In this document: positions 22,473-22,747 of the stretch, piece by piece
Layout of the letters: the number at the start of each line of letters is the position of its first letter
Position numbering within the stretch: the stretch's first letter is position 1
IMG/VR virus record: IMGVR_UViG_3300032332_001787
Coordinates: 64,001 to 128,000 of that record
Source of the DNA: a virus
Lineage: Duplodnaviria > Caudoviricetes
DNA: 64,000 nt
Direction: 5' to 3' (one strand)
Program-made: the position numbers and the translations under genes
Notes under the pieces: model-generated
Database searches by the model: none
The model's input: only the letters and a program-made list of their open reading frames with translations
Told to the model about the DNA's origin: nothing

Positions 22473-22747
22473 GGGGGCTTAATCCAACGGCAGAGATAAA
22501 GGACTTATACAATTTGAGTGCGTAAAGAGAAATCTTTAATGTAGAACCTGTCAAATTCGGTGGAGGCTTAACTGCTAATACCGAGCCAAGCTTAATAGAA
22601 ATATTATGAAGGTGTAGAGACTTGACGGCAGGAACCTAAAACGAAAGTTATGGTTAAGGTAAAGTCCAGACTACAAACAGAAATGGTAACGAAAGTTATA
22701 GTAGTAAGAAAATCCTTCAAGTATCGGTTCGAATCCGATAGCCCCTA
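22473..22747 (+). tRNA. tRNA-Leu(UAA) interrupted by group I intron (exons 22473-22506, 22709-22747)
   Basis: spliced anticodon arm AAGGA-CTT^AAAA-TCCTT; acceptor GGGGGCT/AGCCCCT; T arm ATCGG-TTCGAAT-CCGAT. Confidence 0.9.
22507..22708 (+). other. group I intron (IC3-like), 202 nt, no ORF
   Basis: P1 exon ACUU/IGS GAGU with U.G; TCAAATTCGG, CCGAGCCAAG, GAAGGTGTAGAGACTTGACGG, AAAGTCC core; terminal G. Confidence 0.9.

Follow-up and report, generated by a model that had tools for sequence, protein, structure and literature searches.

A compact group I intron, predicted to splice, in the anticodon of a phage tRNA-Leu(UAA) gene

The window analyzed here is a stretch of 64,000 nt, corresponding to bases 64001-128000 of a single source contig of 230,097 bp (34.7% G+C), and it holds a tRNA-Leu(UAA) gene that is broken within its anticodon. 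The locus raises the question of whether the insertion is a working intron and, if so, why a phage should carry it. Our answer, given with confidence, is that it is a working, ORF-less IC3 group I intron of the Leu.3Ug type, with splicing predicted, located in a phage gene for a class I tRNA-Leu(UAA). The observations behind this answer are the anatomy of the intron, the covariation of its helices, empty sites in related phages, and a junction contig and a circle contig from RNA libraries.

The window codes for RIIA, an ATP-dependent DNA ligase, and many small ORFs on the same strand and thus, given also a source contig of 230 kb, the genome can be assigned to a large phage, the origin that the initial annotation had claimed. 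A tblastn search with RIIA found no close cultured relative (best identity ≤37%). The DNA runs containing the window stretch are labeled as freshwater, lake, wetland or aquatic metagenomes, and the habitat is named here as freshwater or lake from these DNA runs, leaving out the small word shares of the RNA runs.

Boundaries, anatomy and covariation of the intron

With introns allowed, ARAGORN called a tRNA-Leu(taa) gene at 22473-22747 (+) in which positions 34 and 35 are separated by a 202-nt intron (gactt-intron-aaaat); its default run, without introns, missed the split gene. The Infernal check that had been proposed gave a full-model match to Rfam RF00028 (Intron_gpI) at 22496-22690, with 47.9 bits and an E-value of 4e-11 when 601 nt were searched, but the score stayed under the gathering threshold of 50 bits. 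Because it is 2.1 bits below this cut-off, a gathering run over the whole window was silent on the intron, and its only match was a tmRNA. A catalogue of bacterial introns (Williams, 2020) points out that the 12 seed sequences of Rfam Intron_gpI included no bacterial one, and it adopted cut-offs of 18-20 bits instead. A profile of 47 related phage introns, described below, matched the tRNA-Leu intron with an E-value of 1e-53 (nhmmer). The minimum free energy of the single sequence was no more stable than that of shuffles (z -1.42), a value that says little for an RNA as AT-rich as this.

The anticodon stem, AAGGA/UCCUU, was read from the sequence. For an anticodon loop of 7 nt, CUU^AAAA is the sole cut with a U at position -1 together with a G at the intron 3' end, and no different junction yielding another anticodon satisfied this U(-1)/G(omega) rule. 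Intron-less alleles of relatives read CUUAAAA at the anticodon loop. The coordinates first assigned to the intron, 22507-22708 between U34 and A35, are thus exact to the base by both ARAGORN and the cut rule, and the site is indeed the classical U34^A35 position of the tRNA-Leu(UAA) type known from cyanobacteria and plastids. The 202-nt intron, located on the plus strand like the exons and helices given below, ends in an omega-G at 22708 and is supported by Rfam, ARAGORN, nhmmer and the empty-site alleles. It had been described as having no homing ORF, and in fact no ORF longer than 38 aa and no endonuclease ORF were found inside 22507-22708, and the longest ORFs touching the intron on either strand (35-58 aa) matched no family.

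According to ARAGORN, the 5' exon (22473-22506) comprises the acceptor strand, a 3-bp D stem, a Leu-like D loop, the 5' half of the anticodon stem, and C32, U33 and U34, and the 3' exon (22709-22747) comprises A35, A36, A37 and A38, the 3' half of the anticodon stem, the CAAGU variable loop, the T arm, the acceptor strand, and A73, without CCA.

A core pattern taken from the window was used for an exact scan of IMG/VR, which found at least 119 contigs; among the matches listed (119 contigs plus three loci fetched earlier), 84 of 122 cores lie inside split tRNA genes called by ARAGORN. Several loci had ARAGORN cuts displaced by 1-3 nt, which we corrected with the U(-1)/G(omega) rule. The resulting alignment contains 47 distinct phage introns, L011, L012, L036, L041 and L082 having been left out as doubtful calls; helices were assigned by hand, and pairs were then counted across the 47 introns. 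All the assigned helices are kept across this alignment, and the omega-G is present in 47/47.

P1 (22503-22519) is formed by the exon sequence ACUU (22503-22506) and the guide GAGU (22516-22519), with U22506.G22516 as the splice-site pair. None of the 47 introns lacks any of the three pairs nearest the splice site, and the U.G pair never changes, in agreement with the P1 originally drawn. The P10 guide UUU (22513-22515) pairs with AAA of the 3' exon (22709-22711). Its base beside P1 is paired in 45/47 introns, as U-A in Leu, G.U in UUG and G-C in Arg tRNAs, and this co-change with the first base of the 3' exon is what would be expected of a working internal guide.

The P2 hairpin (22523-22538) is made of 6 pairs, whose positions show as many as 6 pair types each, and is closed by a GAAA loop (L2, 22529-22532). 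The P3 5' strand CCUGUC (22547-22552) pairs with GGCAGG (22627-22632, the P3 3' strand), and all 6 pairs are formed in 47/47 introns, with 4-5 pair types at four positions. The next domain (22556-22585) consists of P4 (22556-22560/22581-22585) around P5 (22565-22567/22574-22576) and an A-rich J4/5; for the middle pair of P5, 20 introns have G-C and 21 have C-G. It is followed by P6 (CC/GG) and the P6a hairpin (22586-22612, GAAA loop at 22598-22601), where P6 is invariant and P6a covaries and varies in length; P4 is, like P6, essentially invariant. The P7 5' strand (22617-22622), with a bulged A22618, pairs with the 3' strand AGUCC (22663-22667), which comes just after J8/7, and forms a pseudoknot with P3; by the pair counts, all 5 pairs of P7 are formed in 47/47 introns, with a compensatory A-U at the first pair in one row. 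P7 is presumably the guanosine-binding helix, as in group I introns in general. Between the two P7 strands lies the P8 hairpin (22633-22655, GAAA loop at 22643-22646), whose pairs covary. Overall, P3, P4, P6 and P7 are each paired in at least 46 of the 47 introns, and two of the three P5 pairs and P8 are mostly paired.

The 3' domain (22670-22705), also drawn from covariation, has a P9.0-like closing helix (22670-22674/22701-22705), P9a (22678-22685) and P9 (22686-22699), names that were given by analogy with the Azoarcus intron. P9a and P9 are two GAAA hairpins inside the five-pair closing helix, in which the pair 22672-22703 is U-A in 8 introns and C-G in 38. There are five GAAA loops in the intron. 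The P8 motif CCUAAA...UAUGG (22635-22640 and 22649-22653) is close to CCUAAG...UAUGG, a likeness that makes it a putative 11-nt GAAA-tetraloop receptor, and L2 may dock into P8 as it does in the Azoarcus intron.

Compensatory changes are present in P2, P3, P5, P6a, P8, P9.0, P9a and P9. RNAalifold independently recovered P2-P6, P8, P9 and the exon-exon anticodon stem, with compensatory changes in 35 of 49 predicted pairs. The group I core helices P3-P8 and the P3/P7 pseudoknot are therefore present and backed by covariation, and the core strings singled out in the initial annotation are found in the window, in columns that are invariant in the 47 introns. P2 is present, there is no P5abc extension, and P9 is compact with tetraloops, an architecture that is that of IC3 introns; the kinship to tRNA-Leu introns of this subgroup, already noticed from the core, is borne out by architecture and relatedness, on which the subgroup label is based.

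The tRNA, its uninterrupted relatives and the RNA-library contigs

The spliced tRNA has 73 nt, a 5-nt variable loop (CAAGU), G1.U72, A73, and no encoded CCA (ARAGORN), so that it is not a class II body with a long variable arm. Its D arm has a 3-bp stem (AUC/GAU) and the loop CAACGGCAGA, compared with GAACUGGUAGA in class II phage tRNA-Leu. The tRNA therefore combines A73 with a Leu-type D arm (a 3-bp stem and a large loop with GG), which we take, from work on E. coli, to be identity elements for LeuRS. Some class II phage tRNA-Leu(UAA) share the acceptor stem GGGAGCG/CGCUCCU with class I relatives and, since the D arms are also alike, the class I tRNA is likely to derive from a class II tRNA-Leu that lost its long arm. 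UUA is the commonest leucine codon of the phage (40% of leucine codons), and no other tRNA-Leu was found in its genome. From the sequence of the class I tRNA(UAA), we infer that it has leucine identity.

Short-armed bodies of this kind are found well beyond the window. The intron-less relative L135 matches 350 phage records, including T5-like phages and the cyanophages P-SSM7 and P-RSM6, in which the gene, of 73-77 nt, carries the annotation of a tRNA-Leu reading UUA. The tRNAL2 of T5 (AJ604531) and PSSM7_128 of P-SSM7 have a short-armed UAA body, 77-82% identical to L135, but they are uninterrupted, whereas the tRNA-Leu gene of the window is split. The T5 tRNAL2 record describes a version with a CUA anticodon as an effective amber suppressor. 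Thus, the short variable loop that first drew attention is real, with its 5 nt, and unlike that of bacterial tRNA-Leu, but it is not a special feature of this locus, since the same class I form occurs in T5 and P-SSM7.

A consensus scan placed a promoter-like site at 22426-22453 (+; TAGACA, 16 nt, TATGAT), 20 nt upstream of the tRNA; the scan of the region gave 3 sites against 3.2 expected, that is, no more than chance. The promoter/terminator scan found no terminator at the tRNA locus.

The uninterrupted junction of AAAGGACTT with AAAATCCTTCAA is found in 39 viral contigs, in a 73-nt tRNA(UAA) that agrees with that of the window in G1.U72, A73 and the D loop. When the 202 nt are removed, the window aligns straight over the junction, flanks included, to L124, L157 and others (72-77%), and the exons of the intron-bearing L109 and L104 are identical to those of the intron-less L135, L141 and L162. 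Since this tRNA exists in syntenic relatives that lack the intron, the insertion is optional and can be dispensed with. An intron-less DNA allele carrying exon 2 of the window was searched for in JGI metagenomes and found 0 times, against 2 intron-bearing alleles, which are small numbers. One of these two, the metagenome contig L286, is 100% identical to the window over 22463-22804 and 96.5% identical over the 601-nt region, with the differences in the flanks and identical tRNA exons.

The contigs of four freshwater metatranscriptomes were compared with the locus, the evidence being restricted to the parts covered by RNA contigs. A 168-nt contig of the X19 metatranscriptome (depth 3.2), running over 22461-22828, joins 22506 to 22709 and skips exactly 202 nt. 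It starts downstream of the promoter-like site, has no listed difference from the window within the tRNA exons, and represents a strain whose flanks differ by about 3%; these flank differences are not those of L286, and no link between the two contigs was established. In principle, an intron-less DNA allele or DNA carry-over could also be the source of this contig, because the evidence consists of assembled contigs in RNA libraries, and the counts of 0 and 2 DNA alleles given above are too low to establish that it is spliced RNA.

A second contig, from the X15 metatranscriptome (233 nt, depth 30), has the intron in permuted order, with 22601-22706 placed before 22514-22630 and CGGUUAAA between them. 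At the join, ...GUAGUACG runs directly into GUUAAAUUGAG, that is, the 3' G of the intron is followed, without any intervening exon sequence, by an intron 5' start resembling that of L111. A graph assembly with k=31 would give just such a 30-nt overlap of the contig ends for a closed circle of about 203 nt, and the intron in question is a relative about 94% identical to that of the window. Full-length intron circles are a known product of group I introns, and we read this contig as a full-length circle of the related intron.

The anatomy suggests how splicing would proceed. In the folding pre-tRNA, the exon sequence ACUU would pair with GAGU to form P1, with the U22506.G22516 wobble at the cut, and a free guanosine bound in P7 would attack after U22506. 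P10 (UUU with AAA) and the exon-exon anticodon stem would position the 3' exon, the terminal G22708 would then occupy the G site, and the exons would be ligated. Ligation would yield the anticodon loop CUUAAAA and a tRNA reading UUA.

Spread of the intron family and reasons for its persistence

The intron of the window is one of many compact phage tRNA introns and not a one-off. Among the matches listed, 59 viral loci have the Leu(UAA) context CUU^AAAA, and viral contigs also carry the intron after U34 in tRNAs for Gln(UUG) (CUU^UGGA), Lys(UUU) (CUU^UUAA), Arg(UCU) (CUU^CUAA), Thr(UGU) (CUU^GUAA) and Ser(UGA) (CUU^GAAA), as well as elsewhere in the loop of Arg and Met tRNAs. The phage tRNA introns among these matches have a median of 200 nt, with a smallest member of 184 nt, and 49 of 83 are shorter than 205 nt, so that a size like that of the Azoarcus intron is the rule in phage tRNA introns. 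The window intron had been called comparably tiny to that 205-nt ribozyme; the size holds, but 202 nt is average for phage tRNA introns and not special. Also among the matches listed, phage Leu introns range over 185-263 nt (median 200) and bacterial ones over 202-325 nt (median 234), and the host tRNA is class I in 13 of 57 phage tRNA-Leu versus 0 of 53 bacterial Leu.3Ug.

In bacteria, the exact core pattern was found in at least 120 contigs from many phyla, including the cyanobacteria Allocoleopsis, Oscillatoria, Leptolyngbyaceae and Microcystaceae. Among the matches listed, 53 of 121 bacterial cores lie in a classical CUU^AAAA tRNA-Leu, and the best bacterial matches to the window intron are 70-84% identical, over parts of it. 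Bacterial tRNA introns, including the type "Leu.3Ug", have been catalogued (Williams, 2020). Among cultured or curated genomes, an unannotated split tRNA-Leu(UAA) gene was found in Agrobacterium phage Atu_ph07 and in the 735-kb LR756501. In LR756511 (L003), at least the 3' half of a related intron is present together with a tRNA-Leu-like 3' exon, and an HNH ORF lies within the intron. A joint cmscan of L001-L003 at E-values up to 0.001 gave no match, although clear homologues are present in two of the three; we attribute this to filtering and not to a lack of the intron.

The genome itself has just two copies of the intron, 76.5% alike, according to nhmmer with the 47-intron profile. The second, of 195 nt, lies outside the window at 50674-50939 of the contig and scores 44.9 bits with Rfam Intron_gpI. 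ARAGORN labeled it "tRNA-Stop(tta)", a stop-codon reading that was rejected: only the CUU^UGGA cut satisfies the U(-1)/G(omega) rule, the P10 guide fits UGG, and the product was re-called as a 71-nt tRNA-Gln(ttg), i.e., tRNA-Gln(UUG). A quick FastTree tree from a short alignment placed the Gln copy as sister to a clade with the Leu intron of the window, and not with the other UUG intron, which hints that the intron may have hopped between tRNA genes in which ACUU precedes the cut.

An HNH endonuclease gene (phrog_10822, E 1.3e-41; L004:4922-5632, minus strand) is convergent to the tRNA-Gln(UUG) gene and overlaps its 3' end; the phage genome has only this one gene of the phrog_10822 HNH family. 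Homologues are found within about 100-600 nt of the intron in 16 intron-bearing loci versus 0 of 39 intron-less ones (Fisher p 0.0026, a rough value because flank lengths differ), and these loci include L109 and L285, the closest relatives of the tRNA-Leu intron of the window. In many relatives, a free-standing HNH gene next to the split tRNA is probably what drives the spread of the intron, this route of mobility being a suggestion from gene neighborhood. No endonuclease gene was found beside the tRNA-Leu of the window, where the flanking ORFs had no Pfam or PHROG nuclease match, and the present mobility of this copy is therefore putative. The pattern fits a selfish mobile intron, a passenger that comes and goes among related phages.

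The same neighborhood bears on a further explanation, which could hold in addition to that of a working intron in a class I tRNA gene, namely that the intron is maintained because it interrupts the DNA site recognized by a tRNA-gene-cutting HNH homing endonuclease of related phages. In a mixed infection, uninterrupted alleles would be cut and repaired from the intron allele, in a form of collaborative homing by an ORF-less intron and a free-standing nuclease. The overlap of the HNH gene with tRNA-Gln(UUG), the association of its homologues with intron-bearing loci, and the endonuclease ORF within the LR756511 intron all speak for it, but the window's tRNA-Leu has no HNH neighbor, there is one gene of the family in this genome, and nuclease and intron may merely arrive together. 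We consider this protection of the gene possible, though tentative. The broader proposal that the intron is kept because it benefits the phage, either through a precursor that would serve as a nuclease-proof, anticodon-less store of tRNA-Leu spliced on demand or through a gene immune to the HNH nucleases of competitors, seems to us unlikely; if it were true, phages would be using compact tRNA introns as weapons or shields in their conflicts with hosts or with each other.

The initial annotation had suggested that the intron may conceal the anticodon from the anticodon nucleases of the host or may time the maturation of the tRNA. Phage tRNAs are both targets and counter-measures in tRNA-cleaving defenses, and circumstantially the intron is located in the anticodon itself and the introns favor the U34 site in phage Leu, Gln, Lys, Arg, Thr and Ser tRNAs. 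This preference is explained more simply by the P1 guide, since it requires ...CUU at the cut. Moreover, the tRNA can decode only after splicing, when its anticodon loop is fully exposed; syntenic relatives do without the intron in this tRNA; the locus was connected with no function in tRNA cleavage or repair; and group I splicing requires only GTP and Mg, with no timer that we know of. We therefore find no support for such a service at the RNA level and hold it to be very improbable.

Least probable of all, to the point that we set it aside, is a dead gene in which catalysis has been lost and the tRNA is a relic, leaving the phage dependent on the host tRNA-Leu: the sub-threshold Rfam score and the short P1 (4 bp) could be read in this way, but all the conserved core positions and family helices are intact in the window copy, tRNA and intron are 100% identical in a strain whose 3.5% difference over the 601 nt lies entirely in the flanks, an RNA-library contig has the exact ligated junction, and the gene is the only tRNA-Leu in a genome whose main leucine codon is UUA.

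With one core pattern, the window locus and at least 84 others indicate that phages commonly carry the tRNA intron of cyanobacterial and chloroplast type, in especially compact forms (184-205 nt). Because standard tRNA finders miss or misname split genes, as with the "stop-codon tRNA" that is a tRNA-Gln(UUG), the tRNA sets given for phages need checking, as do claims of suppressor tRNAs. Phages are also a plausible vehicle for the transfer of tRNA introns between bacterial phyla, and their compact introns offer natural minimal ribozymes, rich in covariation, for structural and engineering use.

Comparison with known systems

In virulent phages, the self-splicing introns of T4 td, nrdB and nrdD, of the SPO1 DNA polymerase gene and of cyanophage psbA, often linked to HNH or GIY-YIG endonucleases, are located in protein genes, unlike the intron described here; that of psbA is ORF-less with a free-standing endonuclease. 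A review of bacterial group I introns from 2014 stated that all phage introns to date were in protein-coding genes, despite the many phage tRNA genes (PMC3984707). Introns in phage tRNAs were presented as previously unreported in the preprint on Lak megaphages (Devoto et al., bioRxiv 10.1101/356790), whose "enigmatic" tRNA introns lie in the anticodon region, are conserved between genomes, and are missed by bacterial tRNA finders. Those inserts were assigned to no known class, whereas the insert of the window is clearly a group I ribozyme. A full-text search, with incomplete coverage of the literature, turned up no description of such introns in the tRNA genes of phages as group I.

The closest counterpart is the bacterial and cyanobacterial Leu.3Ug intron, which has the same U34^A35 site, CUU^AAAA context, U at -1 and omega-G as the window intron and shares with it the core GAGCCAAG ... 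AGGUGUAGAGACU.GACGG ... AGUCC. It differs in that the window intron resides in a phage, interrupts a class I tRNA body of 73 nt, and is more compact.

The intron of the pre-tRNA-Ile of Azoarcus sp. BH72 (205 nt, IC3) is about the same size and has, as here, P1-P10 and neither P5abc nor other peripheral domains. In the known structure of the Azoarcus intron, the GAAA tetraloops of P2 and P9 dock into P8 and P5. It interrupts another tRNA at another position of the anticodon loop, and the window intron has two GAAA hairpins within its 5-bp closing helix. The splicing of the Azoarcus intron has been shown experimentally, and that of the window intron is predicted.

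The second intron of the genome and its neighbouring HNH gene

Outside the window, the phage contig that contains it (G000) has another split tRNA gene (50674-50939, i.e., 4675-4940 of the stretch L004), whose 195-nt group I intron (50707-50901) is homologous to the window's intron, with which it shares 76.5% identity. ARAGORN labelled this gene tRNA-Stop(tta), suppressor-like in appearance. The U(-1)/G(omega) rule (U before the 5' cut, G as the last intron base) and the P10 guide pairing with the 3' exon place the cut at CUU^UGGA instead, which makes the gene a tRNA-Gln(UUG).

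A free-standing HNH endonuclease gene of the phrog_10822 family (E 1.3e-41) lies on the minus strand at G000 50921-51631 (L004:4922-5632), oriented convergently with the split tRNA-Gln gene, whose 3' end it overlaps. Among the matches listed, homologues adjoin 16 other intron-bearing tRNA loci and 0 of 39 intron-less ones.

Related introns in other phages and in RNA

The compact intron family of the window was found in many different phage tRNA genes, mostly directly 3' of U34. The phage loci include tRNA-Lys(UUU) (L048 and L102), tRNA-Arg(UCU) (L050, L067, and L079), tRNA-Thr(UGU) (L072), tRNA-Ser(UGA) (L094), and tRNA-Met(CAU) genes (L114 and L096), as well as tRNA-Arg(UCU) genes with the site after U33 (L062, L075, L083, and L084). 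The shortest intron among the matches listed (184 nt) is that of the L048 gene.

At the RNA level, a contig of the freshwater metatranscriptome X15, aligned to window 22514-22706, forms a closed cycle of ~203 nt at a depth of ~30, in which an intron ~94% identical to the window's has its 3' G linked directly to its first base. This cycle is a full-length circle of an intron related to that of the window.

Two huge-phage genomes also contain related elements. In LR756501 (735 kb), a 205-nt ORF-less intron splits a class II (long variable arm) tRNA-Leu(UAA) gene (L001:1472-1762). In LR756511 (595 kb; locus L003), the stretch read covers the 3' half of the intron plus a 3' exon resembling that of tRNA-Leu, and the intron harbours an HNH endonuclease ORF; ARAGORN called no tRNA at this locus. 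Finally, ~155 nt of the Pelagibacter phage HTVC120P (MH598807.1, 19653-19807) show 73% identity to the core of the window's intron and overlap an annotated capsid protein gene, and may represent a related intron inside a protein-coding gene.

A tmRNA in the window

The window also encodes, on the plus strand, a phage tmRNA (15612-15968; Rfam RF00023, 72.7 bits, full length), shortly downstream of a plus-strand tRNA-Ile(UAU) gene (15323-15402). ARAGORN did not call this tmRNA.

tRNA-Leu(UAA) genes of cultured phages

The cultured jumbo Agrobacterium phage Atu_ph07 contains a class II tRNA-Leu(UAA) gene split by a 278-nt member of the window's intron family (L002:1460-1821, about 112.9-113.3 kb of MF403008.1), and the record annotates no feature at this locus. 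Cultured phages often encode a tRNA-Leu(UAA) of the short-armed class I type, for which 350 matching records were found. Examples annotated as tRNA-Leu are the genes of P-SSM7 (L163:302-374) and T5 (tRNAL2; L164:301-377), the database record of the latter describing suppressor activity once the anticodon is altered.
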